64,000 nucleotides of DNA, from contig JBQLZK010000021.1 of assembly GCA_052168235.1 (NCBI GenBank), positions 1-64,000 of the forward strand. Direction: 5' to 3'. The notes under the pieces are model-generated. The model worked only from the letters and a program-made list of their open reading frames with translations, was not told where the DNA came from and searched no databases. Position numbers and translations under genes: made by a program. Source of the DNA: Thainema sp. Its GTDB lineage: Bacteria > Cyanobacteriota > Cyanobacteriia > Phormidesmidales > Phormidesmidaceae. Shown here piece after piece: positions 9,942 through 61,545 of the stretch; position 1 is the first letter of the stretch, and the number at the start of each line of letters is the position of its first letter.

Positions 9942-9950
9942 GCTTTTGTT

Positions 9951-24089: not shown

Positions 24090-24211
24090 GAAATCTTTAC
24101 GCGATCGCACTTGGGATGGCGATTGGGTTGCGAAAGTTTGCAGTATCATGCTGTACGTCATCGAGCCGATAGACTCGTAAGTTAAATTTCGCAACCGGAA
24201 AGAAGCAGATT

Positions 24212-24568: not shown

Positions 24569-24633
24569 GTAACAGCTAGCGCACTTGTGTCCGAGTTAGT
24601 TGCCGGATTTAAAATTCATCCTCACAATCTCTT

Positions 24634-25176: not shown

Positions 25177-26697
<1,521 letters not shown>

Positions 26698-27181: not shown

Positions 27182-27207
27182 TTGCAAGGTGCGATCGCAC
27201 CTTGCAA
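27182..27207. repeat. Perfect 26-bp palindrome centred on HIP1
   Basis: TTGCAAGGTGCGATCGCACCTTGCAA. Confidence 0.9.
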
Positions 27208-27515: not shown

Positions 27516-30332
27516 ATGAAAAGGTGGATTAGCTATTTGAAACAGATTGACGGTAGAGCAATTGCTGGATTATTGATACCTATTGGCCTGAGTCTAGTTT
27601 GGGGAACTGCTGCAAATGCTCAAGTCGTGTCCGATGGCACACTGTCCACCACCGTTTCCCGCTCAGGCGGTAACTTTACCATCACCAATGGCAACCGAGT
27701 CGGCAATAACCTATTTCACAGCTTCAGCCAGTTCTCTGTCCCGACGGGTGGGGCGGCCTTATTCAACAATGCTGCCGATGTGCAAACCATCTTCAGCCGG
27801 GTGACGGGGGGCAGCGTCTCAAATATTGATGGCTTGATTCAAACAAATGGCAATGCTGACCTGTTTTTGCTCAACCCGTCCGGCATTCTCTTCGGCCCCA
27901 ATTCACGCTTGAATATCGGTGGCTCCTTTATCGCCAGCACGGCAGATAGCATTTTGTTTGAAGATGGTACTCAGTTTAGTGCGACTGAGCCAACTGCTTC
28001 GCCATTGCTGACTGTGAGTGTTCCACTGGGATTACAACTGGGAGCCAATGCGGGACCAATCCAAGTCCAAGGTACACCCACCAACAATTTCTTTTTCCGT
28101 CCCCCAACATGGTCGATGAAACCGAATCAAACGCTGGCCTTGATTGGGGGACAAGTGGATATCAATAGTGCCGCTATTTATGTACCCGATGGTCATGTGG
28201 AATTGTGGGCAATGCAGAATGGCACTGTAAACATGCCGACCTCTGGGAAGTGGCAGTTGGCTCGTTCATCCACCCTGCCAACTTGGGGCACTGTCACCTT
28301 GCAGGAGTCCTCCTATATCAATACCAATGGTGCTACGGGGGGACTGATTAACATCCGGGGGCGCGGATTGACTCTGCAAGATGGCTCACATATTGAATCA
28401 TCGACGGGTGCTAATGGTCGTGGTCAGGGTATTCATGTTCAGACCACAGAATTTGTGGATTTGTTGGGCATTTCTGATCCGGCGAATTACACATCTTCGG
28501 GGTTAGCAACCAGTGTGACTGGCAGTGGAGCGACGGCTGGAAATATCACAGTTGATACGCAACGATTGCGCCTTAGCAATAGCGCCTGGATCAGTTCCCT
28601 CAACTATGGCTTTGACTTTTTTACCTTTGCGCCAATTAATAATGCCAGCACTGGCAATATTACAATTCGGGCTGCGGATGTGGAAGTGAATGGTGAAGCA
28701 CCCTTTCCTAATCCATTTACAGGAACTTTTGTCGCGGGTGCAATTACAACGCTAGTTGCCGGGGGGCAACAGAATGACAGCGGTGCCATTACTGTTAATG
28801 CTGAGCGGGTAAGCCTGCTAGACGGAGGCCGCATTAGCACCGATTTATTAGGTTCGTTTGATTTCTTCACCGGACAGCTCAATATTACAAGGGGTACAGC
28901 AGGGGATATCTCTGTGACAGCAACCGAGAGGCTAGATATTCGCGGCACAACTTCAGCCAATTTCAATAGCGCCATCATTAGTTCGATTCAAAACTTAGTG
29001 GAGGGTCAAGGAGGCGATATTACGATTAAGGCTGGGCAACTCAACCTTGCTGCGGGTGGAACGATCTCTAGTGCGATTTCTGGTAGTCCAAATGCTGCGA
29101 TCGCAGGTCGAGGCATAGCCGGAAATGTTACCATTCGAGCCACCGACGTACAAGTTAGCGATCCTGTAGTTGATTTTTATAGCCAGGGTGCTAGCGGCAT
29201 CACAGTGTCTGTGGGGCAAAACGCTATCGGAGCGGGTGGCAATATTAATTTGGCTGCGAGTCGTTTGCGAGTCTTTGACGGAGGACAGATCACCTCGTCA
29301 AGCGAAGGCGACGGGCCAGCCGGAAGCGTCACCCTCCGGGTCAGTGATATTGACGTACAAGGAATTTCCCGATCTCAGGTGAATGGTCAGTTCCTCCCCA
29401 GTACTATCACTGCCTCCTCAGCTAGTGCCTTTGAGGCCGGATCGGTCAATATCAGAGCTAATCGCTTACAGGTGAGAGACGGGGCCGAAGTGACCGTTAG
29501 TAACTCTGGCACAGGCGATGCGGGTAACCTCAACGTCTGGGCTCGCAATGTTTTTCTCGATAATGGCGGTAGCTTACAAGCTGAAGTCAATGGTGGTGGG
29601 CAGGGAAATATTCGACTTCACATTGATGACTTACTCGTGCTGCGAAACGGCAGCAACATCACCACCAATGCTCAAGGTGCGTCCACCGGAGGCAACATCT
29701 CTATCGATGCTGGATTTGTAATAGCGGTAGCCGATGAAAACAGTGACATCATCGCCAATGCTATTGAAGGCAATGGCGGTAACATCGACATCACCACTCA
29801 AGGTATCTTTGGCCTAGAGTTTCGGGATGAACTAACGCCTGAAAGTGATATTACGGCTAGTTCCCAGTTCGGCGTCAGCGGCACGGTTCAGATCACCACC
29901 ATCAACACCGACCCTAGTTCCGGCGTGATTGAACTGCCCGAGAATGTGACAGATCCATCGCAGCAAATCGCCACAGGTTGTGCAGAAACACAGGGTAGCC
30001 AGTTTGTCGCCACTGGACGCGGCGGTGTGCCCCAGAATCCTATCCAGCAGGTCAACCGCGATCGCACTTGGGAGGATGTCCGCGATCTCTCTGCTTATCG
30101 ACAGTCGGAGAACGCTGAGTCTCCAGCCCCGACGACTGTATCTAATCTGATTGAAACCACAAGCTGGCGTCGCAACGCCAACGGTCAGGTTGAACTGATT
30201 GCTCAGCAATCAGCTATCCAGCACTCAACTTTTGCCACCTGTAGCGGATCAGCAATGAGCGAGCGTTTCTTCAGTCACCGTGCAGAAACAGAAACAGAAA
30301 CAGCAGCAATGACGAGTAAAACTAATTGGTGA
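27516..30332 (+). CDS. Filamentous haemagglutinin N-terminal (TPS) domain beta-helical exoprotein, paralogue 1
   Basis: Signal peptide (ANA-Q); NLFHSFSQFSVP, SRVTGG, NPSGILFG; G/N/S-rich beta-helix repeats; C-terminal ATGRGGVPQNP; RBS GGAGGT. Confidence 0.92.
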   Translation: MKRWISYLKQIDGRAIAGLLIPIGLSLVWGTAANAQVVSDGTLSTTVSRSGGNFTITNGNRVGNNLFHSFSQFSVPTGGAALFNNAADVQTIFSRVTGGSVSNIDGLIQTNGNADLFLLNPSGILFGPNSRLNIGGSFIASTADSILFEDGTQFSATEPTASPLLTVSVPLGLQLGANAGPIQVQGTPTNNFFFRPPTWSMKPNQTLALIGGQVDINSAAIYVPDGHVELWAMQNGTVNMPTSGKWQLARSSTLPTWGTVTLQESSYINTNGATGGLINIRGRGLTLQDGSHIESSTGANGRGQGIHVQTTEFVDLLGISDPANYTSSGLATSVTGSGATAGNITVDTQRLRLSNSAWISSLNYGFDFFTFAPINNASTGNITIRAADVEVNGEAPFPNPFTGTFVAGAITTLVAGGQQNDSGAITVNAERVSLLDGGRISTDLLGSFDFFTGQLNITRGTAGDISVTATERLDIRGTTSANFNSAIISSIQNLVEGQGGDITIKAGQLNLAAGGTISSAISGSPNAAIAGRGIAGNVTIRATDVQVSDPVVDFYSQGASGITVSVGQNAIGAGGNINLAASRLRVFDGGQITSSSEGDGPAGSVTLRVSDIDVQGISRSQVNGQFLPSTITASSASAFEAGSVNIRANRLQVRDGAEVTVSNSGTGDAGNLNVWARNVFLDNGGSLQAEVNGGGQGNIRLHIDDLLVLRNGSNITTNAQGASTGGNISIDAGFVIAVADENSDIIANAIEGNGGNIDITTQGIFGLEFRDELTPESDITASSQFGVSGTVQITTINTDPSSGVIELPENVTDPSQQIATGCAETQGSQFVATGRGGVPQNPIQQVNRDRTWEDVRDLSAYRQSENAESPAPTTVSNLIETTSWRRNANGQVELIAQQSAIQHSTFATCSGSAMSERFFSHRAETETETAAMTSKTNW

Positions 30333-30444
30333 TTTGAATAATGAGCTTAGCAATTATCTGAATTCTTCATGTTTAATTACCATGATTAGCAATTATTCAT
30401 GACCAAAGGGAAGCATAAATCAAAGCTTTATCTTGCCAGGATTT

Positions 30445-32985
30445 ATGAGAAGGCGGACGATCTGTCTCAAGAAAATGCGCATTAGACCAATTGTGGGATT
30501 ATTGATACCTGTTGGTCTGAGTTTAGCTTGGGGAGTTTCTGCAAACGCTCAAGTAACACCTGATGGTACTCTATCCACCACTGTTTCTCATACAGACAGC
30601 AGCTTTACCATCAACAACGGCAGCCGAGTTGGCAATCATTTATTCCACAGCTTCAGCCAATTTTCTGTGCCTACCAATGGAGCAGCTATCTTCAACAATG
30701 CTGCCGATGTACAAACTATTTTCAGTCGAGTGACAGGAGGCCGTGTTTCCAATATTGATGGTTTAATTCAAACCAATGGAACGGCTGACTTGTTTCTGCT
30801 CAATCCATCTGGAATTTTATTCGGCCCCAACGCCAGCTTGAATATCGGTGGCTCTTTTATTACAAGTACCGCCGATAGTATTTTGTTTGAGGACGGTACA
30901 GAGTTTGAGACAACTGGCCAAAGTCATCCATCCTTATTGACCATTAGTACTCCGATCGGTTTACAGCTTGGAAATCAACCTGCACCCATTACCGTTCAAG
31001 GCACTGGACACACCCTCACAACATCCACGGGCATCAGTCCGCTCATGCGTAGGTCGGGTTCGAGTGAACTTCGCGTCCAGCCTGGTCATACTCTTGCCTT
31101 AGTGGGTGGGGAGCTAAGGTTGCAGGGTGCGATACTAACTGCTGAGCAAGGAAACATCGAGCTTGGCAGCTCAAGCAATGCAGGCTTAGTTAGGCTAACG
31201 CCAATCCCTGATGGGTATCGTTTGGGCTACGATTCTGCTCAACCGTTTGGCAATATTCAATTAGCTCAACAGTCACTCCTCAATGTCAGTGGTGTGAACG
31301 CAGGTTCTGTAAGCCTTCAGGGACGACAAATTCAGTTTGCCGATGGGTCGCTGATTTGGAGCCAAAACTTGGGTGCCTTACCTGGAGGGACAATCCATTT
31401 GCGGGCATCCGAAAGCATCAATATAGTGGGGACGACTGCGGACGCCGCAATTCGTAGCGGCATCCGTAATGAATCTCTTGCCACAGGTGCTGGATCAGCG
31501 ATTGAAATTGTCACGCCGCACTTGAGTTTGTTGCAAGGCGCAGGGATTAATAGTAATGCCTTTGGCACGGGTTCCAGTGGTGATATTAAAGTCAATGCTG
31601 CCACTGTTGAGATTGCGGGTTCTTCCCCCATTAACCCCAGTGGCGTAACGTCTTTAACGACCAATACGCGTGGCTTTCAACCTGCAGGTGACATCTATAT
31701 TACAGGTGAGCGCTTGCTGGTTTCAGGGGGTGGGGCTTTGTCCTCGATCACATTTGGTGCAGGGGCTGGTGGGCAGGTCACCATTCGCAATCGTGAAACG
31801 ACTGTAGTAGGAGATAACTTTGGTGGTCTTTACAGCAATATCAGCGGTATCACATTTGGTACTGGCGATGCGGGAAGAGTCGCGTTAGAGACTCAACGAT
31901 TGCGCATACTCGACGGTGGTGCGATCGCAACTACATCTTGGCTTGTGGGACAGGGAGGCGATCTAGATATCAATGCCACAGAGTCCGTTCTGATCAGTGG
32001 GCAGGGCCAAAGTAATAACAGCAGCATCAATTCAGCCGTCATTCGGCCAGATCGGCTAATTCAGTTGCTCTTTGGCCTGCCTGATGTTCTAACCGCTGAT
32101 GCTGGCAGCATCAATGTAACAACGCCAAGCTTATTGATAACGGACGGTGGAACAATCAGCGTTACTAATCGGGGTAGCGGTGATGGAGGGATGCTTGCGA
32201 TCGCAACTGATCTCCTTTACCTCGATCGCCAGAGCAGCATTCAAGCTCAGACCACTTCAGGAGAAGGTGGAAACATCAACCTCCAAGCACAAAATGGGCT
32301 AATTATACGGAATGGGAGTTTGATTAACGCCACTGCAGGCGGCGCAGGTAATGGCGGCAATATCACTATTGATGCGCCAGTAATTGTAGGACTAGAAAAT
32401 AGTGACATTATTGCCAATGCTGTTGAAGGTAACGGCGGGAACATCGATATCACAACTCAAGGCATCTTTGGTTTAGAGTTTCGCGACCAACTGACCCCTG
32501 AAAATGACATCACGGCTAGCTCTCAGTTTGGGATAAGCGGCACGGTTCAAATCAGCTCCATCGATACTGATCCGAGTTCTGGTGTGATTGAACTGCCTGC
32601 CAACGTGGTAGACCCATCACAGCAAATCGCCACAGGCTGTGCAGAGACTCAAGGCAGTCAGTTTGTCGCCACTGGACGCGGAGGTGTGCCGCAGAATCCG
32701 ACCCAGCAGATAAACCGCGATCGCACTTGGGAAGATGTCCGCGATCTTTCTGCTTATCGGCAATTAGAGAACGCTGAGCCTCCAGTTTTAACGACTACAC
32801 CTAATCTCGTTGAAACCACAAGCTGGCGTCGGAACGCTAATGGTCAGATTGAGTTGATTGCTGAGCAATCGGCTGTACCGCAATCGGCTTTTGCTACCTG
32901 TAGCGGTTCAGAGGTAAGCGGTTATTCCCCTAGCCACCGCGTAGCAACAGGGACAGCCACCATGACGAGCCAAGCCAGTTGGTGA
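30445..32985 (+). CDS. FHA/TPS-domain exoprotein, paralogue 2
   Basis: Same N- and C-terminal modules as paralogue 1 with a different central region; start ATG 30445 or 30475. Confidence 0.92.
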   Translation: MRRRTICLKKMRIRPIVGLLIPVGLSLAWGVSANAQVTPDGTLSTTVSHTDSSFTINNGSRVGNHLFHSFSQFSVPTNGAAIFNNAADVQTIFSRVTGGRVSNIDGLIQTNGTADLFLLNPSGILFGPNASLNIGGSFITSTADSILFEDGTEFETTGQSHPSLLTISTPIGLQLGNQPAPITVQGTGHTLTTSTGISPLMRRSGSSELRVQPGHTLALVGGELRLQGAILTAEQGNIELGSSSNAGLVRLTPIPDGYRLGYDSAQPFGNIQLAQQSLLNVSGVNAGSVSLQGRQIQFADGSLIWSQNLGALPGGTIHLRASESINIVGTTADAAIRSGIRNESLATGAGSAIEIVTPHLSLLQGAGINSNAFGTGSSGDIKVNAATVEIAGSSPINPSGVTSLTTNTRGFQPAGDIYITGERLLVSGGGALSSITFGAGAGGQVTIRNRETTVVGDNFGGLYSNISGITFGTGDAGRVALETQRLRILDGGAIATTSWLVGQGGDLDINATESVLISGQGQSNNSSINSAVIRPDRLIQLLFGLPDVLTADAGSINVTTPSLLITDGGTISVTNRGSGDGGMLAIATDLLYLDRQSSIQAQTTSGEGGNINLQAQNGLIIRNGSLINATAGGAGNGGNITIDAPVIVGLENSDIIANAVEGNGGNIDITTQGIFGLEFRDQLTPENDITASSQFGISGTVQISSIDTDPSSGVIELPANVVDPSQQIATGCAETQGSQFVATGRGGVPQNPTQQINRDRTWEDVRDLSAYRQLENAEPPVLTTTPNLVETTSWRRNANGQIELIAEQSAVPQSAFATCSGSEVSGYSPSHRVATGTATMTSQASW

Positions 32986-33102
32986 TTGGGAAGAATAAAT
33001 CTGATTTTTTATCTAATTCTCAATGTTTATCACCGTAACTAGCAATTATTCGCCATCCAAGGGAAATATAAATTAAAGTTGCGCCTTACCAGGGTTAGGT
33101 TG

Positions 33103-35673
33103 ATGAAAAGATGGATGAGTTGTTTCGAAAAGATACATATTGAAACGGTTGCTGGTTTACTAATACCTATTGGATTGGGTTTGGTTTTTGGAACCCCCGC
33201 AAACGCTCAAGTAACACCTGACGGCACTCTATCCACTACCGTTTCTCGCACAGGCAGCAACTTTACCATCAACAACGGCAACCAAGTCGGCAATAATTTA
33301 TTCCACAGCTTCAGCCAATTTTCTGTGCCAACCAATGGAGCAGCTATCTTCAATAATGCTGCCGATGTGCAAACTATTTTTAGTCGAGTAACCGGGGGCA
33401 GTGTTTCCAATATTGATGGCCTCATTCAAACCAATGGCAATGCAAATTTGTTTCTGCTCAATTCAGCCGGAATTCTCTTTGGCCCCAATGCCAGTTTGAA
33501 TGTCGGGGGCTCTTTCATTGCCAGCACCGCTGATAGTGTTGTGTTTGAGGATGGAGCACAGTTCAGTACCACAGACGTTGCTGCTGCGCCCTTGCTGACT
33601 GTAAATGTGCCAGTAGGGTTGCAGATGGGAAGCGATCCTGGCTCAATAATCGTGCAGGGCCCGGGCAATCAATTGCTCGATTTAACTGGTTTCGGTACGC
33701 CCAGTACTCTCAATACTCCTGCCGGTCTGCAAGTTGAAGCTAATCGGACACTCGCATTGATTGGTGGTGCCGTAAACTTCTCTGGCGGTGTTATTTCCAC
33801 CAATGGTGGTGGGCATCTAGAAATAGGCAGTGTCAGCAATGGATCAGTTCGACTGACAGCTACACCTACGGGATGGGTGGGGGATTACTCTGCAGTGTCG
33901 CAGTTTAGCGATGTTCATCTGGCGCAAGACTCAATACTGAATACTAGCGGCAGTAATAGCTCCATCCAAATCCAAGGGCAAAACGTCAGTTTGACCGAAG
34001 GGTCTACTGCTTTGATCCAAAACTTTGGGCCTCAGTCTACCGGGGGAATTACAGTCAATGCTAGAGGCTCCCTTGACTTGGCGGGGAACACAACCAACGG
34101 TCAATTGGGAAGTTTGATCCAAATTAATAATTTCGGTACAGGCCAGACCGAAGATATTACTATTTCTGCGGCTCAGCTATCTCTCCGAGATGGGGCAAGA
34201 GTGCGAACGAACAGTGTTCAGAGTGCGGGCGGCAACATTACAGCAAATGTAACCGGTACAACCGAGATTAGCGGAATCAACCGCAACAACCCTGCCATTT
34301 ATACTGCACTCGTAACATTTTCGCTTGGCAGTGGCAATGCAGGGGACATCAACGTGTCTACGGGTAATCTCAATCTTTTAGATTCTGGACAAATTACTTC
34401 TGTCGCTCTTAGTTCTGGAAACAGTGGCACCATCCAAGTCAATGCAACAGAGCAAATTGACATTGCAGGGTATAACCCTTTGGCATTTTATGAAAGTTCA
34501 GTGAGTACCTTTACTCAGGGGTCTGGTAATGCAAATAATGCAATCATCAACACCTCTAGATTAGTAATTCAGGATGGAGGCTCTCTAGGATCTTCTACCG
34601 TAGCCAGTGGTTCAGCCGGTAGCGTAGAAATTAACGCTTCAGAGTTTATCCACATCCAGGGGCGTGCGACTCAGGGTAATGGTGCCGGAACAATCTCTCG
34701 TATTTTTTCAAACGCTGAACTTCTTAGCCCAGCCGCTCAAGCTGCTTTTGGGCTACCAGCTATTCCTGCCGGCAATGCAGGGTTCATTACCATCAATACC
34801 CCATCGCTACGCATTGCCGATGGGGGTGCAGTAAGTGTCAAAAATGATGGTCCAGGGCTTGCAGGGAATGTACAGATTAATGCTGAATCTATGTTTCTGG
34901 AGCGTCAAAGCAGCATTACTGCAGTAGCTCAGTCAGGAGAAGGGGGAAATCTTGTCTTTGACTTATCTGAGATACTATACCTAACCGATTTAAGCCAACT
35001 GAATGCTGAAGCTGGCGGGACTGGCAATGGGGGCAATATTACTATTAACGTGCCGTTTATCGTCGGCTTGAACAACAGCGATATCATCGCTAATGCTGTT
35101 GAAGGAAATGGTGGCAAAATTGACATCACGGCTCAAGGCATCTTTGGCCTAGAGTTTCGGGATGAACTAACGCCTGAAAGTGATATTACGGCTAGTTCTG
35201 AGTTCGGTGTCAGCGGTACGGTTCAGATTAACTCTATCGATACTGATCCGAGTTCTGGTGTGATTGAACTGCCCGAGAATGTCGCAGACCCATCACAGCA
35301 AATTGCAACGGGCTGTGAAGAAACGCAAGGTAGTCAGTTCATTGCCACTGGACGCGGTGGTGTGCCCCAGAATCCCGCTCAGCAGGTAAACCGCGATCGC
35401 ACTTGGGAAGATGTCCGCGATCTCTCTGCTTACCGACAGTCTAGCAGCCCTGAACCGCCAGCCCCGGCGACCGTATCTAATTTGATTGAAACCACAAGCT
35501 GGCGTCGCAATGCTAATGGTCAGGTTGAACTGGTTGCTGAGCAATCAGCGATGCCGCAATCGGCTTTTGCCACCTGTAGCGGTTCAACGATGAACGGTCG
35601 TTTCCCTAGCCACAGCACAGTAACGGAGACAGCCACAATGACTAGCCAATCAGTTAGTAATTGGGAAGAATAA
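33103..35673 (+). CDS. FHA/TPS-domain exoprotein, paralogue 3
   Basis: Same modules; NSAGILFG variant of the NPxG motif; ATG 33103 aligns with the paralogue 1 start. Confidence 0.92.
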   Translation: MKRWMSCFEKIHIETVAGLLIPIGLGLVFGTPANAQVTPDGTLSTTVSRTGSNFTINNGNQVGNNLFHSFSQFSVPTNGAAIFNNAADVQTIFSRVTGGSVSNIDGLIQTNGNANLFLLNSAGILFGPNASLNVGGSFIASTADSVVFEDGAQFSTTDVAAAPLLTVNVPVGLQMGSDPGSIIVQGPGNQLLDLTGFGTPSTLNTPAGLQVEANRTLALIGGAVNFSGGVISTNGGGHLEIGSVSNGSVRLTATPTGWVGDYSAVSQFSDVHLAQDSILNTSGSNSSIQIQGQNVSLTEGSTALIQNFGPQSTGGITVNARGSLDLAGNTTNGQLGSLIQINNFGTGQTEDITISAAQLSLRDGARVRTNSVQSAGGNITANVTGTTEISGINRNNPAIYTALVTFSLGSGNAGDINVSTGNLNLLDSGQITSVALSSGNSGTIQVNATEQIDIAGYNPLAFYESSVSTFTQGSGNANNAIINTSRLVIQDGGSLGSSTVASGSAGSVEINASEFIHIQGRATQGNGAGTISRIFSNAELLSPAAQAAFGLPAIPAGNAGFITINTPSLRIADGGAVSVKNDGPGLAGNVQINAESMFLERQSSITAVAQSGEGGNLVFDLSEILYLTDLSQLNAEAGGTGNGGNITINVPFIVGLNNSDIIANAVEGNGGKIDITAQGIFGLEFRDELTPESDITASSEFGVSGTVQINSIDTDPSSGVIELPENVADPSQQIATGCEETQGSQFIATGRGGVPQNPAQQVNRDRTWEDVRDLSAYRQSSSPEPPAPATVSNLIETTSWRRNANGQVELVAEQSAMPQSAFATCSGSTMNGRFPSHSTVTETATMTSQSVSNWEE

Positions 35674-35776
35674 ATCTGATTTTTATCTAATTCTCAATGT
35701 TTATCACCGTAATTAGCAATTATCCGTCATTCAAGGGAAATATAAAACACAGTTGTGTCTCACTAGGGTTAGGTTG

Positions 35777-38530
35777 ATGAAAAGATGGATGAGTTGTTTC
35801 GGCAAGACACATGTTGGGACAGTTGCGGGGTTATTGATACCTGTTGGACTGAATTTAATTTGGGGAGTTTCTGCAAACGCTCAAGTAACCTCTGATGGCA
35901 CTTTATCCACAACCGTTTCTCGCACAGGCAGCAACTTTACCATCAACAACGGCAGTCGAGTCGGCAATAATTTATTCCACAGCTTCAGCCAATTTTCTGT
36001 GCCCACCAATGGAGCAGCTATCTTCAATAATGCTGCCGATGTACAAACCATTTTCAGCCGAGTAACCGGGGGCAGTGCTTCAAATATTGATGGCCTCATT
36101 CAAACCAATGGCAGTGCAAATTTATTTCTGCTCAATTCAGCGGGCATTCTCTTTGGTCCCAATGCCCGTTTAGATATTAGCGGTTCGTTTGTTGCTAGTA
36201 CCGCAAGTAGTGTCTTATTTGGCGATGGTGTTCAGTGGAGCACGACCAATACAGCCACGCCTCCATTGTTAACCGTTAGTGTTCCGGTAGGATTACAACT
36301 GGGGCCGAATGCAGGATCAATTCAAGTCGAAGGGCCACCAGTACTAAATTCGTTTATTCCTCGTCCTCCAACTCTGACTGTCCCATCAGGAGAAACCTTG
36401 GCCTTAGTTACTGGACAAATCGATATTGATAACGCAACCCTAACGGCTCCAGATGGGCAAATCGAACTGTGGGCTGTACAAGATGCTGAGGTGACGTTTA
36501 ACAGTAGTCTCCGTAATTGGCGCTTGGTGAGTGAGATGGATCTAGCGAACTGGGGTACAGTTTCGCTACGACAAGCTTCGTTGGTGAATGCAAGTGGAAC
36601 CGATGGTGGGGCCATCAACATCCGGGGATTAGGACTGACTGTGCAAGATGGATCAAACATTAGTTCGAATACCTTAGCGGGTCAAGGGAGAGGTATTACC
36701 GTTCAAACGACAGACTTTGTTGACCTGCTAGGAGCGTCACAGCCAAATCAGTTTTTCCCTGGTATTGGAACGTCTGTTGGAAGCATATTTGAGCCTCTAG
36801 CCATCGGGCGTGCAGGCAACGTAACCGTCGAGACCGAGAACTTGCGATTGCGTAATGGAGCAGGACTTTTTTCCTCTTCGTCTGGTAACAATTCTCGAAC
36901 AGGGGATATTGTTGTTCGAGCTTCAAACATTGAGGTTATCGGCTTCCAGCCCTTTTTATTGCAACCAACCTCCATTACTACTACGCTCTTTAGCGGTACC
37001 AACAATGAAAGTGGCAATATTACTATTGAGTCTGATCGCATCCGTGTGCAAGATGGAGGACTGATCAGTACGTCTTTGCTGGCTTTTAGCCCTCTATTTC
37101 CTACGGTTGGAAGATCGGGTGATATTTCGATCCGAGCAACCGAAAGCTTCGAAATTGCGGGTTCGACACCTTTCAATGTGCTATCTGGGGTATCTACAGG
37201 CATTCAACCCTTTGCAGAAGGGCAGGCTGGAAACATCACAATTAATGCTGGACGGCTACAAATCTCTGATGGCGGATCTATTCGGAGTAGCTTAGCAGGA
37301 ACAGGGCAAGCCGGAAGCATTTCTATTCGAGCAACGGAGATAGCCGTTAGTGAACCGAAACTTGATGGCACCAGCAATTTACCCGGTGGCATTACCGTTG
37401 CTGTAGGAAGTAATGCAGTCGGCCCAGGTGGCAGTATCAATCTAACGGCTGATCGGCTATATGTCTTTGATGGTGGCCAGATTACATCTTCCAGCTTAGG
37501 ACAAGGAACCGCCGGAAGCGTCAGCCTCCGGGTCAGAGATATTGATGTGCGAGGCATTTCCCCGTCTCAAATAAATGGCCAGTTCCTACCCAGTGAAATC
37601 ACAGCCTCTTCGACAGGTGCCTTTGAGGCAGGCTCAGTCAATATCAGAGCCGATCGCTTACAGGTGCGTGACGGTGCTAAAGTAACCGTGAGCAATTTGG
37701 GGACTGGTGATGCCGGGAACCTCAACGTTTGGGCTCGCAACGTCTTCTTGGATAACGGTGGCAGTCTACAAGCTGAAGTTAACGGCGGTGGGCAAGGAAA
37801 TATTCGACTTCACATTGATGACTTACTCGTGCTGCGAAACGGCAGCAACATCACCACCAATGCTCAAGGTGCGTCCACCGGAGGCAACATCTCTATCGAT
37901 GCTGGATTTGTAATAGCGGTAGCCGATGAAAACAGTGACATCATCGCCAATGCTATTGAAGGCAATGGCGGTAACATCGACATCACCACTCAAGGTATCT
38001 TTGGCCTAGAGTTTCGGGATGAACTAACGCCTGAAAGTGATATTACGGCTAGTTCCCAGTTCGGCGTCAGCGGCACGGTTCAGATCACCACCATCAACAC
38101 CGACCCTAGTTCTGGCGTGATTGAACTACCTGCTAACGTGACAGACCCGTCACAGCAAATTGCTACAGGCTGTGCAGAAACGCAAGGCAGTCAGTTCATT
38201 GCCACTGGACGCGGCGGCGTACCCCAGAATCCTACCCAGCAGGTCAACCGCGATCGCACTTGGGAGGATGTGCGTGACTTATCAGCATATCGACAGTCAG
38301 AGAACGCTGAGTCTCCAGCCCTGACGACCACATCTAATTTGGTTGAAACCACAAGTTGGCGTCGCAATGCTAATGGTCAGGTTGAGCTGATTGCTGAGCA
38401 ATCGGCTATGCCGCAGTCGGCTTTTGCCACCTGTAGCGGTTCGGCAATGAACAGTCGTTCTCCCAACCACAGCACAGTGATTGAGGCAGCAGCCATAACG
38501 AGCCAAGCCGTTGGTGATTGGGAAGAATAA
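35777..38530 (+). CDS. FHA/TPS-domain exoprotein, paralogue 4
   Basis: Same modules; NSAGILFG variant; ATG 35777. Confidence 0.92.
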   Translation: MKRWMSCFGKTHVGTVAGLLIPVGLNLIWGVSANAQVTSDGTLSTTVSRTGSNFTINNGSRVGNNLFHSFSQFSVPTNGAAIFNNAADVQTIFSRVTGGSASNIDGLIQTNGSANLFLLNSAGILFGPNARLDISGSFVASTASSVLFGDGVQWSTTNTATPPLLTVSVPVGLQLGPNAGSIQVEGPPVLNSFIPRPPTLTVPSGETLALVTGQIDIDNATLTAPDGQIELWAVQDAEVTFNSSLRNWRLVSEMDLANWGTVSLRQASLVNASGTDGGAINIRGLGLTVQDGSNISSNTLAGQGRGITVQTTDFVDLLGASQPNQFFPGIGTSVGSIFEPLAIGRAGNVTVETENLRLRNGAGLFSSSSGNNSRTGDIVVRASNIEVIGFQPFLLQPTSITTTLFSGTNNESGNITIESDRIRVQDGGLISTSLLAFSPLFPTVGRSGDISIRATESFEIAGSTPFNVLSGVSTGIQPFAEGQAGNITINAGRLQISDGGSIRSSLAGTGQAGSISIRATEIAVSEPKLDGTSNLPGGITVAVGSNAVGPGGSINLTADRLYVFDGGQITSSSLGQGTAGSVSLRVRDIDVRGISPSQINGQFLPSEITASSTGAFEAGSVNIRADRLQVRDGAKVTVSNLGTGDAGNLNVWARNVFLDNGGSLQAEVNGGGQGNIRLHIDDLLVLRNGSNITTNAQGASTGGNISIDAGFVIAVADENSDIIANAIEGNGGNIDITTQGIFGLEFRDELTPESDITASSQFGVSGTVQITTINTDPSSGVIELPANVTDPSQQIATGCAETQGSQFIATGRGGVPQNPTQQVNRDRTWEDVRDLSAYRQSENAESPALTTTSNLVETTSWRRNANGQVELIAEQSAMPQSAFATCSGSAMNSRSPNHSTVIEAAAITSQAVGDWEE

Positions 38531-38634
38531 ATCCGATTTTTATCTAATTTTCAATGTTTTGTCACCGCAATTAGCAATTATTCGCTATTCAAGGGAAATA
38601 TAAAACACAGTTGTGTCTCACCAGGGTTAGATTG

Positions 38635-41433: not shown

Positions 41434-41699
41434 ATGAACTGGTGATTTGAATTCTCTTTGGTTTTTCCATTTTCCATTTTAAAGATGAACAGTTTTATTA
41501 CTGAAGATGGTAATTATTCGTTAATGAGGGGAAATCTAGATCAAGAAATTGATCCTGGAGGCAAATCGATGGAGTGGTGGTTCAGTGATTGCCCAAAGAG
41601 ACAAACAAATTGGCAATGTTTAAAGCCTAATTACATAACTGACCAGTAATCTGTAGCCGATTAACGTGGCTAACTGTCAAACTACCTGCATAAACTCCT

Positions 41700-44282: not shown

Positions 44283-44737
44283 CATACAAAAGCCACAATG
44301 CAAGTTTAGATTCCTAATCAAATAGGAGCGATGAATCCGTGCTGAAATAGTTGCGATCGCAACAGGGACAAATTTGCCTAAACTCGATCAATAAATTTAG
44401 TTGATCAAGTTTAGATTGGACAAATTCCTGTTTACTTAAAAAACATTGTTGTCGTTCGTTGATTTAGATCTCGTAAAAATACTCAGATTTGCGTAGTTTC
44501 TCTATGGTTCCGATGTGCGTAGTTGTCTATGTTACAAGTGTGTTCTCTGTTAATGATGTATCCGACAGCAAATCGTTGTTCTTAATCACTAATTTCAACC
44601 AATTTTGATTAGGAAATAATGAGGAACTACCTGTTCGGAAAGGTTTTAGCGTGATGGATGTAGAGCCATTTTTATCATCTGCTCTATTTGTAATCGCTAG
44701 AGTTTTGTCCACATTAACCTTATCCAGGTATCACGTC

Positions 44738-45724
44738 ATGAAACGTCAACATCTGGCGAGTATGTTGAGCATTGTTGCTCTAATCGCGGGTGGTGTTTGT
44801 ACCAGTGCTCAAGCTGTGACATTTACACCCCCGACCACCAATCGGGCTCCAAGTCAAGCGACTGGCGGAGCATCGCGCGGGAGTTTCTTTATCCCTCCAG
44901 CTGACCAGGGTGCTCCGAATCAAGCCACGGGTGGAGCCTCTCGTGGAGGCTTGTTTGTGCCTGCTGATGGTCAGCGGGCTCCTCGACAGGCAATGGGCGG
45001 AGCGTCACGCGGTGGTCTATTTACACCTGCCGATGGCCAACGGGCTCCCCAGCATGCGGCTGGTGGAGCATCGCGCGGCGATCTGTTCACGCCTGCTGAT
45101 AGTCAGCGGGCTCCCCAACAGGCTGCTGGTGGGGCATCGCGTGTCGGCACCTACTATTTGAATCCATCAATGGTAGGGGCAGACGGCCCAGCCGCGATGA
45201 TTGCGCTGACGCCTCAAAGCTACTACGGCACGACGGTGTCTGAGCGTCCCATGTTTCTGGTGTATCTGCCTGCATCCAATGCGGCGGAAGCCGTTTTTAG
45301 TCTGAAGGACGCAGCGGGCAATCTGCAATACCAGATGACGGTTCCGGTTGCCGGAGCTGTTGGTGTTGTGCCAATTCAATTGCCAGAAGATGCACCTGCC
45401 CTAGAAATTGGGGAAGACTATCAGTGGTTAGTTGCACTCAAGGTCGATGGGCAGTTGGGGCCAAGCACGCCCTATGTCGATGGCTGGATTCAGCGGATTC
45501 AACCAAATGACGAGCTGGCAACGGCTCTGCAAGAGGGAGATGCCCTAGAACAGGCAACGGCTCTGGGTCAAGACGGTGTGTGGTATGACTGCGTGGCAAT
45601 TCTTGCTTCGCTTTATGCCACAGAGGCAGCGGATACGACCTTAACCCATCAGTGGGCAGAACTACTGTCCTCAGTTGGATTAGAAGCAATTGAAACAGCT
45701 CCCGTTTTAGCTTCTGTTCAATAG
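44738..45724 (+). CDS. Exported DUF928 protein with five 22-aa GGASRG repeats
   Basis: Signal peptide; G.TVSERPMFLVYLP, LEIGEDYQW, GWIQRI, GVWYD, WAELLSSVGL; ATG 44738. Confidence 0.88.
   Translation: MKRQHLASMLSIVALIAGGVCTSAQAVTFTPPTTNRAPSQATGGASRGSFFIPPADQGAPNQATGGASRGGLFVPADGQRAPRQAMGGASRGGLFTPADGQRAPQHAAGGASRGDLFTPADSQRAPQQAAGGASRVGTYYLNPSMVGADGPAAMIALTPQSYYGTTVSERPMFLVYLPASNAAEAVFSLKDAAGNLQYQMTVPVAGAVGVVPIQLPEDAPALEIGEDYQWLVALKVDGQLGPSTPYVDGWIQRIQPNDELATALQEGDALEQATALGQDGVWYDCVAILASLYATEAADTTLTHQWAELLSSVGLEAIETAPVLASVQ
44822..45142 (+). repeat. Five in-frame 66-bp coding tandem repeats
   Basis: Unit FxPxxxxxAPxQAxGGASRG; nucleotide divergence mostly at third codon positions. Confidence 0.9.
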
Positions 45725-45733
45725 ATTGGCTTA

Positions 45734-45834
45734 CTCACATCTTGCACCTTGCATTTTAAGAAACCGAACAGGTTATTTTGCCGTCGCATCACGGCGGCAA
45801 AATAACCCTTCTGGGTTCTGGTGCAAGATGTGCG
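45734..45834. mobile_element. 101-bp MITE-like element with 15-bp terminal inverted repeats and an internal hairpin
   Basis: CTCACATCTTGCACC ... GGTGCAAGATGTGCG (14/15); inner GGTTATTTTGCCGTCG CATCA CGGCGGCAAAATAACC; flanks CTTA/CTCA. Confidence 0.7.
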
Positions 45835-45941
45835 CTCAGTAATGTCTAACGTCCAGTAGAAGTTGGTGAGTTATCCTTGCCAACTTCTTGGCCTAGCCCA
45901 ACCCATATTCAATCAGCTCGCGATCGCTGTCTAGCAAAATT

Positions 45942-48767
45942 ATGTGGCGCAAGTTTCAGACTCTTCTTCAACGAACTCGTAGCGTACTGGTGATTACGCC
46001 CAGTGTGGCTTTGACTGTCATTGTGGGTCAGTCATTTGGGTTGTTTAACCTACCGGAATGGAAGATCCGCGACGAGTGGGTGCGGTTGCGATCGCAAAAT
46101 GTCGTAGCCGACGAGATTGTCATTGTCACAATTGATGAGCAGGATATTCAATCGGTCGGTAACTGGCCGGTTCCAGACTGGGCACTGGCGCAGCTACTGG
46201 AACAGATTCGGGCGCAAGAACCGCGCAGCATCGGCCTGGATCTGTATCGCGATTTGCCGGAGGGCAGTGGCCACGAGCAGTTAGTTGAGATCTTTCAAAC
46301 AACGCCTAATTTAATTGGAGTTGAGAAAATTACCGGGGAACGAGTTCCAGCGCCGCCCGCACTAAAAGAGCTCGACCAAGTGGGACTGGCAGATTTGGTG
46401 CTAGACAGCGATCGCAACGTGCGCCGCGCCCTGCTCACGGCTGGCGATGAGCAAGAGGACAACATCATCAAAGCTGGATTGGCTACCCGCGTTGCTCTCC
46501 AGTACCTGGAAGCCGAAAGTATCAGTTTAGAAAGCATTGATCCAGAGCAGCAGAAGTTTCAGTTGGGTCAACAAACTTATGTACCACTCAGCCGACAGGA
46601 AGCGGGCTACTCGAATGGGGATTTGGGCGGCTATCAGATTTTGCTGAACTGGCATGGCTCAGAAACTGCTTTCCAAACGGTTACCATGCGCGATGTGCTA
46701 GCAGGCAACGTGCCGTCGGATTTAATGCGCGATCGCATGGTTTTTATTGGCTCGACCGCTTCGAGTACAAACGACTTTTTTGGCACTCCCTTTAGTTCCT
46801 CTTGGCTATTTGCCCAACGTCCAACACCTGGTGTCGTTGTTCATGCCAATATTGCCTACCAGCTCGTTCGCGGCGCACAGACGGGAACAGCGAATCTACG
46901 CGGCTTTTCCCGTGTCCCCTTTGCTGGCTGGATTTTACTCTGGTCTACTGTGGGGTCAGTTGGTAGCTGGTGGCTCTCAAGCGTGCAAGCGGGTAAATGG
47001 ATTCCGGGCGGCAAAATCTTCTGGGCCAGCGTGGGCATTAATGGAGCACTACTGGTGGGCGGTTACGCCGGATTCTTGGGCGGTATTTTGATTCCCGTTA
47101 GTCCTGCATTGGTCGCATTGACTAGCAGCGTGATTGCCACGACAAACGCTCGCAAACAGCAAAAGCTAGAAGAAACCAACCAACAGCTCGAAATTGCTAA
47201 CGCTCAGCTTCTGGACTATTCCAAAACGCTGGAAGCCAAAGTAGAAGAGCGCACACACGAGCTAGTTCAAGCCAAACAAGCCGCTGATGCCGCCAACCAA
47301 GCCAAGAGCGAGTTCCTGGCCAATATGAGTCATGAGCTGCGCACGCCGCTCAACGGCATTTTGGGCTACGCCCAAATTCTAGAGCGCTCGCCAGCGCTCC
47401 GTCAGCAAGATCAAAAAGGGGTAGGCATTATCTATCAATGCGGCACCCACCTCCTGACGCTGATTAATGACATTCTGGATTTGTCAAAAATCGAAGCTCG
47501 CAAACTGGATTTATCACCCACAAAGATTCATTTGCTGACGTTTTTGCATGGAGTGGCTGAAATCTGTCGCATTCGGGCCGAGCAAAAAGGTGTGTTCTTC
47601 AATATGGCCATGAACGATCGCCTACCGATGACGATTCAGGCCGATGAAAAGCGGCTGCGACAGGTTTTGATTAATCTGCTGGGAAACGCTATCAAGTTTA
47701 CGGACAACGGCAAAGTCACATTCAAAATTGATGTCCTGCCCCAGGCTGCTCCGCCGCAAGACGAAGATGAACAGCAGGCCAATCAGCTTACCATCACGCT
47801 GCGCTTTCAAGTTGAAGACACTGGCATTGGCATGTCTGCCGATCAGATCGAAAAAATCTTTTTACCGTTTGAGCAGGTTGGTGAAGCTAGTCATCGCCCC
47901 GACGGTACTGGCTTGGGGCTAGCGATTAGCCAAAAAATCATCGCGCTGATGAGTAGTCAAATTCAGGTACAGAGCCGCTTAGGAGAAGGCAGCGTCTTCT
48001 GGTTTGACCTCAGTGTTCCAGTGTCCCGTGACTGGCAGGCCACAGAGCAGAACCCGACCCAACCCGTAATTGTAGGAATTCAAGGTCAATCCCCCAAAAT
48101 CCTAATTATTGATGACGATGCCAATCATCGTTCAATTTTGACGAAGCTGCTGCAGGACATCGGTTGTCAAACCCTTGCCGCCACAGACGGTGGTGAAGGA
48201 TTAGCACAAGCTATGCAACATCAGCCCGATCTGATTGTGCTGGATTTGGCCATGCCTAATATGGATGGATTTGAGCTGATGATGAAGTTGCAGGCTAATT
48301 CAGACACTCAAGCCATTCCAATTATCGTGTCTAGTGCCAGCGTGTTTGAAGCAGACCGCGATCGCAGTTTGCAAGCTGGGGCACATACATTTCTGCCCAA
48401 ACCGTTTCAAACCGATGAACTACTCAATGCCATCAGCTCACTGCTGAATGTGGACTGGATCTATGCCGAAGTAATGCCACTGTCAACCTCTTTAATTCCT
48501 GATCCGCTGCCAGTACAGTCGTCTGCTCATCAACATAATCATCAACAGGATGAATGGGTCTTGCCTTCAGATGACGTTCTACAGCAGCTCTACCACCTGG
48601 CCATGATGGGCGACATTCCAGCGATTGAGCAGATTTTAGTGGACTTAACTCAACATTCACAGTTCGCTCCCTTTGTCGCTGAGTTACACAAGCTGGCCAC
48701 TAACTTTCAAACTAAAAAAATTCGCCAATTCCTCAAAGCTTTTGTCAAAACGGAGTCGCATCAGTAA
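45942..48767 (+). CDS. CHASE2-domain hybrid sensor histidine kinase
   Basis: [33 protein letters not shown], 3 [35 protein letters not shown]. Confidence 0.93.
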
Positions 48768-50158
48768 TGATTTCACATTCTTTCTCCCAGTCAACTTCCA
48801 CGCTGAGTCAGGCTGCTCAATGTGATGGATCACCGAATAGCTTAGTCACTGATGCCATACCGACTTCTGTGCATATTCTGCTGGTTGATGATAATCCAAC
48901 CAATCTGAAAGTGCTGTCGGAAGCCATTCAAGGCTATGGTTGGAAAGCGTTAATGGCAACGGATGGTGAATCTGCGATTGAACAGGCTGAATATGCTAGT
49001 CCTGATTTGATTTTGCTGGATGTGATGATGCCTGGTTTGAACGGGTTCGAAACCTGCCGCAGGCTAAAAGATAATCCCCTGACTCAAAATATTCCGATCA
49101 TTTTTATGACCGCTTTATCGGATGCAAGAGATAAAGTGAAAGGGTTAGAAATGGGCGCGGTCGATTATGTAACTAAGCCATTTCAACAAGAAGAAGTCGT
49201 TGCTCGGTTGAAGCTGCATCTGAAGCTATCTCATTTAACCCGCACACTTGAGCAACAGGTGCAAGAGCGTACCGCCAAATTAGCCCAATCCTTACAGCAA
49301 TTACAGCAGGCGCAACTAAAGCTGGTACAAAGCGAAAAAATGTCTGCTTTAGGTAATTTGGTTGCGGGTGTCGCCCATGAAATCAATAATCCCGTAGGCT
49401 TTTTATCGGGCAATTTACAGCCAGCACAGGATTATGTCAGCGACCTAATGCGGCTAATTGATCTATATCAGCAAACCTATCCTGAACCCACACCTGAAAT
49501 TCAGGATGAGCTAGAGGATGTGGATCTGGACTATTTACGGGATGATTTGCCTAAGCTTCTACAGTCGATGCGAGTGGGAATTGAGCGTATCCACGGCATC
49601 AGCAACAGCCTTCGGACGTTCTCCCGTGCAGATAAGGACTACAAAGTTCCGTTTGATGTTCATGAAGGATTAGATAGTACGCTGCTAATCCTGAAGCATC
49701 GCCTGAAAGCCAATGATAATCGGCCCGATATTGAGGTGGTTAAACACTATGGTGACTTGCCTAAAATTGACTGCTTTCCTGGCCAATTAAATCAGGTCTT
49801 TATGAATATCCTGGCCAATGCAATTGATGCACTAGAAGAATCTAATGCTGAACGCAGCTTTGCCGACATTAAAGCCAATCCTAATCAAATTACTATCAGT
49901 ACCCAATTAACGGACGATCAGCAGGCCGTTGTCATTCAGCTTCAAGATAACGGCATTGGCATCAGTGAGGAGGTCAAGCAGAAAATTTTTGATCACCTGT
50001 TTACGACTAAAGATGTGGGGAAGGGAACTGGACTGGGTTTAGCCATCTCTCAACAAATCGTTGTTGAACAGCACAACGGTTCGCTAGACGTCAAAGCGTC
50101 CCCAAATCAAGGCTCTGAATTCACGATCACCTTGCCTGTTAAGGCTCTCAACTCTTAG
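48767..50158 (+). CDS. REC-histidine kinase (NtrB-like HisKA)
   Basis: LLVDDNPTN, LDVMMP, SEKMSALGNLVAGVAHEINNP, GKGTGLGL; TAATG stop/start overlap with the upstream gene. Confidence 0.93.
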   Translation: MISHSFSQSTSTLSQAAQCDGSPNSLVTDAIPTSVHILLVDDNPTNLKVLSEAIQGYGWKALMATDGESAIEQAEYASPDLILLDVMMPGLNGFETCRRLKDNPLTQNIPIIFMTALSDARDKVKGLEMGAVDYVTKPFQQEEVVARLKLHLKLSHLTRTLEQQVQERTAKLAQSLQQLQQAQLKLVQSEKMSALGNLVAGVAHEINNPVGFLSGNLQPAQDYVSDLMRLIDLYQQTYPEPTPEIQDELEDVDLDYLRDDLPKLLQSMRVGIERIHGISNSLRTFSRADKDYKVPFDVHEGLDSTLLILKHRLKANDNRPDIEVVKHYGDLPKIDCFPGQLNQVFMNILANAIDALEESNAERSFADIKANPNQITISTQLTDDQQAVVIQLQDNGIGISEEVKQKIFDHLFTTKDVGKGTGLGLAISQQIVVEQHNGSLDVKASPNQGSEFTITLPVKALNS

Positions 50159-50361
50159 GTGACTCGTTGATACTGATTGATCACTATGCATTCACATTTG
50201 TCGGCAACCTGTTTCTTGCTGGTTGCCAGCTCGTTAGCCGCTCTGGCTAACAGATCTATCTCGGTGTCCAGGTAGTGACCCAATCTGGATGATGATAGGT
50301 AAATTTGAAAATTTACTTGACGAATTTAGAGACTTTACGGCATGATAGTAGACGCGTATAC

Positions 50362-50434
50362 GGGGCTATAGCGCAGTTGGTAGCGCATCTCAATGGCATT
50401 GAGAGGGTCAGCGGTTCGAATCCGCTTAGCTCCA
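50362..50434 (+). tRNA. tRNA-Ala(GGC)
   Basis: GGGGCTA/TAGCTCC acceptor stem with G3:U70, D arm GCGC, anticodon arm TCTCA-AT GGC AT-TGAGA, T arm AGCGG TTCGAAT CCGCT; CCA not encoded. Confidence 0.97.
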
Positions 50435-50478
50435 TTCTATTATTTTCTGCACCGCCGATTTTTACATCACGACTGTCG

Positions 50479-51618: not shown

Positions 51619-51647
51619 AAAGTAAATCAAGCGCGTAGTGCAATTGT

Positions 51648-61517: not shown

Positions 61518-61545
61518 CATAAAAGAGTTGTAAGAAATAAACCAA

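Follow-up and report, generated by a model that had tools for sequence, protein, structure and literature searches.

The question raised by positions 27516 to 50158 of the window, the 64,000-nucleotide stretch of Thainema sp. contig JBQLZK010000021.1 analysed here, is whether nine neighbouring genes for exoproteins, a protease, a DUF928 protein and two histidine kinases belong to one system and, if so, what that system does. A first-pass annotation had described five exoproteins of the two-partner secretion (TPS) type (TpsA), an exported protease with TPR and CHAT domains, an exported DUF928 protein, a CHASE2 hybrid kinase and a REC-kinase, all in the same orientation; the open reading frame (ORF) listing and Pfam bore out all nine genes on the + strand (table 1), and the start of the REC-kinase gene does overlap the stop of the hybrid kinase gene (TAATG). 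We tentatively propose that this locus is the kinase-output copy of a recurring cyanobacterial envelope module, in which the CHAT protease would couple the state of surface filaments to a phosphorelay. The observed basis of the proposal is gene content, export signals, a catalytic dyad, synteny, gene fusions, a predicted fold, the co-diversification of DUF928 with CHASE2, and gene conversion in the TpsA tails; from these we infer every binding and cleavage event, which way the signal runs, and which TpsB serves the five TpsA.

That the genes form a conserved, functionally linked set was supported by cross-genome synteny, by paralogous sets in the same genome, and by TpsA-TPR-CHAT fusions. The own-genome sets were found by tblastn and Pfam. 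Contig C18 carries TpsA, TPR-CHAT, DUF928, and CHASE2-GGDEF genes in the same order as the window, and contig C25 carries a CHAT-like-CHASE2 gene, DUF928, and a gene for a 1890-aa TpsA-TPR-CHAT fusion, beside DUF1822. Smaller sets were found on C46 (DUF928, CHASE2-GGDEF-EAL, CHAT), C50 (TpsA, TpsB, TPR-CHAT, caspase), C64 (TpsA, TPR-CHAT), C22 (Ser/Thr kinase-CHASE2, DUF928), and C12 (a second TpsA-CHAT fusion). A CHASE2 gene lay within 2 kb of five of the eight DUF928 genes of this genome; when the CHASE2 genes were placed at random 1000 times, this held for 0.08 DUF928 genes on average and never for more than 2. For other cyanobacteria, the best-scoring listed DUF928 gene of each of 57 genomes (L078 excluded) was surveyed with flanks of about 9.7 kb, a biased sample with a single locus from each genome, and the loci were scanned with hidden Markov models built from the own-genome paralogues. 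The conserved co-occurrence anticipated by the first-pass annotation was found: CHASE2 was present at 44 of the 57 loci (42 within 700 bp, 40 on the same strand), CHAT at 22, TPS at 12 (11 of these with CHAT, two as fusions), and TpsB at nine. The frequencies expected per 20 kb from own-genome copy numbers are about 3.4% for CHASE2, 5.6% for CHAT, 4% for TPS, and 0.8% for TpsB, and random placement in the own genome agreed with them. At the level of whole genomes, DUF928 occurred in 101 and CHASE2 in 279 of the 301 sampled; CHASE2 was present in 101/101 DUF928 genomes, a weak test given that it is nearly universal in the sample.

The gene order of the window was kept at loci L064, L082, and L083, with a TpsB gene upstream at L064 and L082, and the order CHAT-DUF928-CHASE2 was kept at L064, L074, L085, and L083 and on own contig C18. 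At L064, L074, and L085, the core of CHAT, DUF928, CHASE2 hybrid kinase, and REC-kinase was 58-69% identical to that of the window, with the REC-kinase orthologue (63-69%) again following the CHASE2 kinase. The TpsA arm varied, with five genes in the window and two plus TpsB at L064. At L074 (14531-17341), a TpsA was reduced to its last 306 aa beside an IS-type (insertion sequence) tnpA/tnpB pair, which consists of a 399-aa TnpB-like ORF with Zn-ribbon cysteines and a 137-aa TnpA-like ORF, both named from sequence alone.

These counts also bear on the view that the locus holds two independent units, a DUF928-CHASE2 pair that senses an envelope or small-molecule cue and a TpsA adhesin with CHAT as its maturation protease, which are neighbours because the phosphorelay controls filament-gene expression, or for no functional reason. 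CHASE2 stood alone beside DUF928 at 25 of the 57 loci, CHASE2, CHAT, and TPS occurred together at eight, and no CHASE2 lay nearby at 13; CHASE2, CHAT, TPS, and TpsB were all present at five loci and all absent from six. Thus, DUF928-CHASE2 is mostly found without CHAT or TPS; TpsA-CHAT occurs without CHASE2 at three of the 57 loci and on own contigs C50 and C64, and TpsA gene number varies among the orthologous loci, all of which suits independent units. However, 22 of 57 loci with CHAT within about 9.7 kb of DUF928 is well above the expected 5.6% or so, the CHAT-DUF928-CHASE2 order is kept at four loci and on C18, and no DNA-binding regulator is encoded within 27516-50158 according to Pfam. 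On balance, we regard independence of the two units as somewhat unlikely.

Within the set, DUF928 has a tight tie to CHASE2, which is supported by adjacency, by the DUF928 tree, and by an MtxA-like fold. The 45 CHASE2 proteins encoded beside DUF928 had very different outputs, comprising 22 class III cyclases, 14 proteins with an N-terminal CHAT-like domain, three hybrid kinases, two GGDEF-EAL proteins, one GGDEF protein, one SpoIIE phosphatase, and two without an output; because of this diversity, we consider the DUF928-CHASE2 pair to be the constant sensing part. In a tree of 49 DUF928 domains, the class of the partner changed only seven times, where the minimum possible is six; with the labels shuffled 200 times, there were never fewer than 19 changes and on average 24.1. 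Since the DUF928 tree follows the output class of the neighbouring receptor, the pairs have diversified together, which is not proof of contact, as related genomes share labels.

The same outputs bear on an inside-to-outside arrangement resembling LapD/LapG, in which CHASE2 with DUF928 would restrain or release CHAT and so time the cutting of TpsA, while the kinase would report or set the state and would not be the receiver of a cue from outside. There is a precedent in CdrA/CdrB with LapG/LapD, the gene set would be the same as in the coupling that we propose, and the outputs beside DUF928 include cyclic di-GMP (c-di-GMP) enzymes. The CHASE2 outputs are nevertheless of the active type (cyclase, kinase, GGDEF), as is usual for sensors that signal from outside to inside, and 35 of the 57 DUF928 loci have no CHAT nearby; we therefore consider this arrangement unlikely.

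The DUF928 protein carries an export signal, as had been claimed. The ATG at 44738 is likely the true start because orthologues begin MKR.YL there, and a signal peptide follows it; the DUF928 match (PF06051) scored 172.7 bits against a Pfam gathering cut-off of 26. Behind the signal peptide, a motif recurs at aa 43, 65, 87, 109, and 131, that is, in 22-residue units, and Tandem Repeats Finder reported a 66-nt period with 2.8 copies at 44959-45141. This N-terminal motif is single in most DUF928 proteins; at least four copies were present in five of the 63 aligned proteins, and the subfamily of the window and L083 have four to five units such as "APxQATGGASRGxLFxPAxGxx". Two nearly invariant cysteines of the family have been lost from the same subfamily and L083. 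AlphaFold2, run with 63 sequences, modelled the repeat region as disordered, followed by an immunoglobulin-like (Ig-like) sandwich (aa 138-253) and four helices (aa 258-312); the predicted local distance difference test (pLDDT) of 10-residue blocks was 88-98 from aa 151 and 82 in the last block.

The best Foldseek match of this model was the C-terminal domain of MtxA (PDB 4Z29, E 9.6e-6). By VIA, the model and 4Z29 matched over 150 aa and both sub-domains (Z 9.6, root mean square deviation 3.9, 13% identity), and the runner-up reached Z 7.1. A DUF928 profile searched against PDB sequences at E up to 10 gave no 4Z29 chain and no meaningful match, and no MtxA family appeared among the Pfam matches of the 63 DUF928 proteins at E up to 1. 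In the excerpted description, MtxA has a signal peptide as well as Ig-like and TPR-like parts, and mtxA is followed by a gene for a CHASE2 adenylate cyclase (PMC4439547); one mtx cluster is given, in an extract of another report, as a Sel1-domain gene, mtxA, and the cyclase gene (PMC5088516). The combination of a fold that DUF928 and MtxA appear to share, as judged from the model, with a CHASE2 neighbour that both have is striking.

The repeats invite a bolder reading. It is plausible from the sequence that cleavage of DUF928 yields a ligand, an idea that the tandem 22-residue repeats would fit. In its full form, the repeats would be a pro-peptide array cut by CHAT, a released peptide or the trimmed DUF928 would be the CHASE2 ligand, and the TpsA tails would draw in the protease or switch it on, turning surface contact or filament load into a peptide signal; several copies of a short peptide would come from one precursor, as in the yeast alpha-factor precursor. 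We hold this full form to be quite doubtful. If true, CHASE2 would gain its first defined ligand class, and a bacterial caspase-like protease would for the first time have a signalling role outside the cytoplasm.

We then considered the five TpsA proteins (850-940 aa), for which signal peptides, conserved ends, and differing middles had been claimed, and all three features stood. Each has a TPS domain (PF05860, E 1e-62 to 1e-67 by Pfam) and a hydrophobic signal-like N-terminal segment (aa 15-33 in TpsA1), so that all five combine the two marks of a type Vb TpsA; for genes 2-5, a conserved Met 4-8 codons into the listed ORFs is the most likely start. Overall identity to TpsA1 was 53-75% in alignment A1 (53% for paralogue 2 and 54% for paralogue 3). 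By tblastn, the TPS domains were 56-78% and the last 238 aa 72-90% identical to those of TpsA1 (tails of paralogues 2 and 3, 74% and 72%). The middles in alignment A1 were unlike one another and carried large indels. In a codon-level comparison, the middles of most pairs were 37-60% identical in nucleotides, and the third positions of shared four-fold codons were near random, which amounts to synonymous saturation; thus, the middles diverged long ago, with no recent diversification. Synonymous identity was much higher at the ends, and nucleotide identity reached 100% between TpsA1 and TpsA4 over aligned codons 751-850 and between TpsA1 and TpsA5 over aligned codons 901-950. These tracts indicate gene conversion at the TpsA ends. 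A shared TpsB is a known reason for keeping the N-terminal ends of TpsA proteins alike; since both ends are kept alike here, the tail should by the same logic have a shared partner.

The suggestion of the first-pass annotation that the variable TpsA act as identity or self/non-self sensors was not supported by this comparison. The C-termini are conserved, the middles diverged anciently, and the orthologous loci have two TpsA, one IS-truncated TpsA, or none within 6.5 kb, so that self/non-self recognition appears unlikely from the sequences. Contact-dependent inhibition or kin recognition, with the five TpsA as identity or toxin-delivery molecules, could draw on five tandem paralogues with differing middles. 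Variable toxin ends are expected of such a system, whereas the C-termini are the most conserved part of these proteins (72-90%); the gaps between the TpsA genes (79-100 bp) contain no ORF and no immunity-like gene, and the synonymous saturation of the middles speaks of ancient divergence. We consider this explanation very improbable and rejected a polymorphic-toxin role for TpsA on the conserved C-termini and the missing immunity gene.

The genome has three TpsB genes, all outside the window, on contigs C54, C4, and C50. The TpsB of L064 was 53% identical to the copies on C50 and C4 and 41% to that on C54, and the C4 gene has no TpsA neighbour. This orphan and the C50 TpsB are, judging by sequence, the best candidate transporters for the five TpsA.

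After the end of the beta-helix, the tail contains an invariant Cys, the motif F..TGRGG.P..P, a variable linker, a W-containing hairpin, and a second Cys near the C-terminus. Both cysteines were invariant in 21 sequences (the five TpsA and 16 relatives) and the GRGG.P..P motif was invariant or nearly so; in an 18-sequence alignment (A6), the first Cys and the motif were invariant. Mature TpsA have only these two cysteines (C822 and C909 in TpsA1). The tail is predicted to be disordered, the AlphaFold2 pLDDT being about 90 in the beta-helix and below 50 over the last ~140 residues except for one hairpin, although a 21-sequence alignment makes this weak evidence. A tail profile matched 8013 clusters at E <=0.001 and 5613 at E <=1e-10 among 1.84 billion representatives, and the match lay at the extreme C-terminus in 150/150 among the matches listed. 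Pfam analysis of 30 of these 150 found an N-terminal TPS domain in 22 of the 25 proteins of at least 588 aa; the five short proteins, which had no TPS domain, are probably fragments. No Pfam model matches the tail. Of 17 complete stand-alone TpsA, 16 have the tail; the four TpsA-TPR-CHAT fusions examined all lack it, TPR-CHAT forming their C-terminal part in its place. Because of the invariant residues, the predicted disorder, the gene conversion, and the absence from the four fusions, it is plausible that the shared tail engages the CHAT protease. On own contig C45 (locus L016, 3841-10406), a gene for a tail-bearing TpsA of 1187 aa is followed by a 224-aa ORF and by a gene for a 637-aa CHASE2 protein in which Pfam recognised no output domain; the 224-aa ORF was considered as DUF928-like and ruled out (hhalign probability 0.2).

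The protease itself was as described, a signal-peptide TPR-CHAT protein with intact catalytic motifs. It has a hydrophobic N-terminal segment (aa 8-32) and a CHAT domain (PF12770, E 5.5e-64) with HLATHG (His725) and LSACD (Cys772), and thus the catalytic His and Cys of a clan CD protease. Both residues were invariant in 30/30 aligned CHAT domains, and most stand-alone CHAT copies in that set also have a hydrophobic N-terminus. Among PDB sequences, the CHAT protein matched only TPR proteins. TpsA-TPR-CHAT fusion proteins occur at loci L013, L018, L065, and L071, and because they join the two in one chain, TpsA is tied to CHAT. The exported TPR-CHAT and these fusions point to a role for a caspase-like enzyme outside the cytoplasm.

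In the envelope module that we propose, these parts would work as two pairs. In the first, DUF928 would be the periplasmic partner or co-sensor of the CHASE2 receptor, and the CHASE2 hybrid kinase would feed the second REC-kinase. In the second, TpsA beta-helix exoproteins would work with the exported protease TPR-CHAT: the five TpsA would be secreted through a TpsB pore whose gene lies outside the window, and the disordered tail would stay periplasmic, where its two cysteines and GRGG motif may form a plug like the cysteine hook of CdrA. CHAT would then cut the TpsA tail, the N-terminal 22-residue repeats of DUF928, or both, and cleavage would report the state of the surface filaments to the CHASE2 kinase. 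A tail family with two invariant cysteines and no Pfam model suggests a general means of retaining or releasing cyanobacterial surface filaments, which would bear on adhesion, biofilm, and mat formation.

Several points weigh against this proposal. The full gene set is a minority among the 57 DUF928 loci, and with CHASE2 alone at 25 of them, DUF928-CHASE2 would work without a protease arm in most. Among the closest orthologous cores, L085 has no TpsA within 6.5 kb and L074 only the IS-truncated one, and related genomes share labels, so that there are fewer independent cases than the tree and the synteny counts suggest. No TpsB (ShlB match) was found in the window. In the own genome, only three of six tail-bearing TpsA loci have a CHAT neighbour, which, together with the very large size of the tail family, means that the tail may serve TpsB and not CHAT. 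The cleavage preference of CHAT proteases is not readable from sequence. The suggested link between DUF928 and MtxA consists of the modelled fold and gene context only, and, in the part of the report that describes it, mtxA deletion had no phenotype under standard conditions (PMC4439547).

The CHASE2 domain (PF05226, aa 23-339) is flanked by hydrophobic segments (aa 14-35 and 366-401) and is followed by HisKA, HATPase, and REC, as in a transmembrane receptor with cytoplasmic output; its periplasmic part gave no meaningful match among PDB sequences. Of the parts of a multi-step phosphorelay, the hybrid kinase and a REC-kinase are present; neither an Hpt domain nor a DNA-binding regulator was detected by Pfam within 27516-50158. 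The ~110 residues after REC (aa 832-941) match no Pfam family, and an "LHKL" stretch within them might, from the sequence, mark a degenerate Hpt domain. Downstream, a dense block of signalling genes on the - strand converges on the nine-gene locus (table 1), and its Hpt-containing regulator could, on sequence grounds, complete the phosphorelay of the CHASE2 kinase.

Table 1. Features of the window, with positions counted from its first nucleotide
Feature	Position	Strand	Evidence or remark
TpsA paralogue 1, 938 aa: signal peptide, TPS domain, beta-helix, C-terminal tail	27516..30332	+	PF05860 E 1.6e-63
TpsA paralogue 2	30445..32985 (ORF from 30433; conserved Met at 30445)	+	PF05860 E 8.7e-68
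TpsA paralogue 3	33103..35673 (ORF from 33079; conserved Met at 33103)	+	PF05860 E 2.6e-62
TpsA paralogue 4	35777..38530 (ORF from 35753; conserved Met at 35777)	+	PF05860 E 8.8e-63
TpsA paralogue 5	38635..41433 (ORF from 38611; conserved Met at 38635)	+	PF05860 E 1.1e-64
TpsA1 tail	29898..30332	+	equivalent tails 32551-32985, 35239-35673, 38096-38530, 40999-41433
TPR-CHAT (clan CD, caspase-like) predicted exported protease, 860 aa	41700..44282	+	Pfam CHAT PF12770 E 5.5e-64 + TPR families
DUF928 protein, 328 aa, predicted periplasmic	44738..45724 (ORF from 44651)	+	PF06051 E 8.7e-51
DUF928 N-terminal tandem repeats	44843..45148	+	five protein-level copies, consensus about "APxQAxGGASRGxLFxPADxQR"
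CHASE2 hybrid histidine kinase, 941 aa: CHASE2 + HisKA + HATPase_c + Response_reg	45942..48767	+	Pfam; CHASE2 E 1.5e-60
Segment after REC of CHASE2 kinase	48435-48767		no Pfam family
REC-histidine kinase, 463 aa: REC + HisKA + HATPase	48767..50158	+	Pfam
Small signal recognition particle (SRP) RNA gene, bacterial	9848-9944		Rfam RF00169, 63.6 bits
Protochlorophyllide-reductase-type genes	23223-26697		Pfam
Palindrome, 26 nt	27182-27207		perfect
Direct repeat, 16 nt	44483-44524		copies 26 nt apart
Inverted repeat, 28-nt arms	45759-45819		imperfect
tRNA-Ala gene	50362-50434
Signalling block	50479-63949	-
REC-histidine kinase (HK)	50479-51630	-	Pfam
CBS-PAS-GAF-GAF-HK	51648-54944	-	Pfam
REC-PAS-GAF-PAS-HK-REC	55209-59393	-	Pfam
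HisKA-EAL	59745-60797	-	Pfam
OmpR-type regulator with Hpt and REC domains	62177-63949	-	Pfam

The nine-gene locus has clear edges on both sides. Upstream, a block of protochlorophyllide-reductase-type genes (NifH-like, then nitrogenase component 1-type, with two DUF5331 genes between them, by Pfam) is separated from TpsA1 by an 818-bp gap, and downstream a tRNA-Ala gene closes the locus. The gap contains a perfect palindrome centred on GCGATCGC, which we take to be a HIP1-type octamer, common in cyanobacteria. A direct repeat (TCAGATTTGCGTAGTT / TCCGATGTGCGTAGTT) lies upstream of the DUF928 gene and an imperfect inverted repeat lies between the DUF928 and CHASE2 kinase genes; the former may serve as a regulator site and the latter as an attenuator or terminator. 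A scan of 41300-50700 for promoters and terminators did not exceed shuffled sequences (10 against 11.0 expected and 7 against 9.9), and Rfam at its gathering threshold found no riboswitch in the window, only the SRP RNA and one tRNA. The nine sequencing runs found for 41700-50158 were all DNA metagenomes.

In the full-text literature, the papers' supplements not being covered, we found no description of a DUF928-CHASE2-CHAT-TpsA module. DUF928 is mentioned in passing with CHASE2 and WD40 genes of Nostoc punctiforme (PMC5587647), and nothing further on it was found in full texts; "CHAT domain" and "two-partner secretion" were never mentioned together there. New here are the kinase-type DUF928 subfamily with its repeat array, the tail family with its gene conversion, the five-fold TpsA expansion, the DUF928 fold matching MtxA, and the DUF928 tree following the class of the neighbouring receptor. 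CHASE2 is a sensor domain widespread in bacteria, and an excerpt of a 2023 paper still terms its ligands unknown (PMC10581220); a near-constant, putative periplasmic partner such as DUF928 is a concrete protein from which to find what CHASE2 detects. The window is a good test case, with an assayable kinase output, the DUF928 repeat array, and five candidate substrates in one locus.

How the proposed module relates to known systems can be judged part by part. In LuxP-LuxQ and TorT-TorS, a soluble periplasmic protein encoded beside a hybrid histidine kinase sets kinase activity; such partners have periplasmic-binding-protein folds and bind small molecules, whereas DUF928 is modelled as an Ig-like sandwich with a helical bundle and a disordered repeat tail. 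A caspase-like domain is tied to CHASE2 in the EACC2-caspases with a C-terminal CHASE2, found with an extracytoplasmic function (ECF) sigma factor and DUF1822 (Kaur, Iyer, Burroughs, Aravind 2021, PMC8195603), and such a fusion is seen in 14 of the 45 CHASE2 proteins encoded beside DUF928, including the C25 protein beside DUF1822. In the published systems, the receptor carries the protease as a fused cytoplasmic domain (PMC8195603), whereas the window has a separate, exported TPR-CHAT; the text of PMC8195603, its supplement not being covered, does not contain DUF928, periplasmic, or hemagglutinin. The C25 set (locus L013, 10594-14188) has its CHAT-like-CHASE2 fusion beside DUF1822, as in the systems of Kaur et al. 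2021, and, unlike them, has DUF928 and a TpsA-TPR-CHAT fusion attached.

CHASE2 receptors activated by a protein signal through an outer-membrane beta-barrel are described, in an excerpt, for the cyclases CyaD1, CyaD2, and CyaK with NsrA of Sinorhizobium meliloti (PMC13001267); that system differs in its cyclase output and plant-derived signal, and the same excerpt does not report DUF928, CHAT, or TpsA. The mtx cluster of magnetotactic bacteria is alike, as far as its excerpted descriptions go, in encoding a signal-peptide protein with Ig-like and helical parts beside a CHASE2 receptor. Its output is a cyclase and that of the window a kinase; TpsA and CHAT genes are not mentioned for it in those excerpts, and MtxA has a further N-terminal beta-rich region where the DUF928 protein of the window has short repeats.

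The CdrA/CdrB-LapG/LapD system of Pseudomonas aeruginosa, in which the periplasmic proteolysis of a TpsA adhesin is regulated, offers a similar logic. According to extracts of the reports, a cysteine hook keeps CdrA in CdrB (PMC7616799, PMC11898600), the suggestion being that the C-terminal Cys pair plugs the TpsB pore, and LapG, a protease of the periplasm, sets CdrA free (PMC4694147). The likeness, within these extracts, lies in a C-terminal Cys pair of TpsA and a periplasmic cysteine protease. In the window, however, the protease is TPR-CHAT, of caspase fold, and not a LapG family member, the membrane partner is a CHASE2 kinase with DUF928 and not a c-di-GMP receptor of the LapD type, and TpsB is not encoded beside TpsA. 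The direction of signalling is probably the reverse, and it is in logic alone that the window resembles LapG/LapD.

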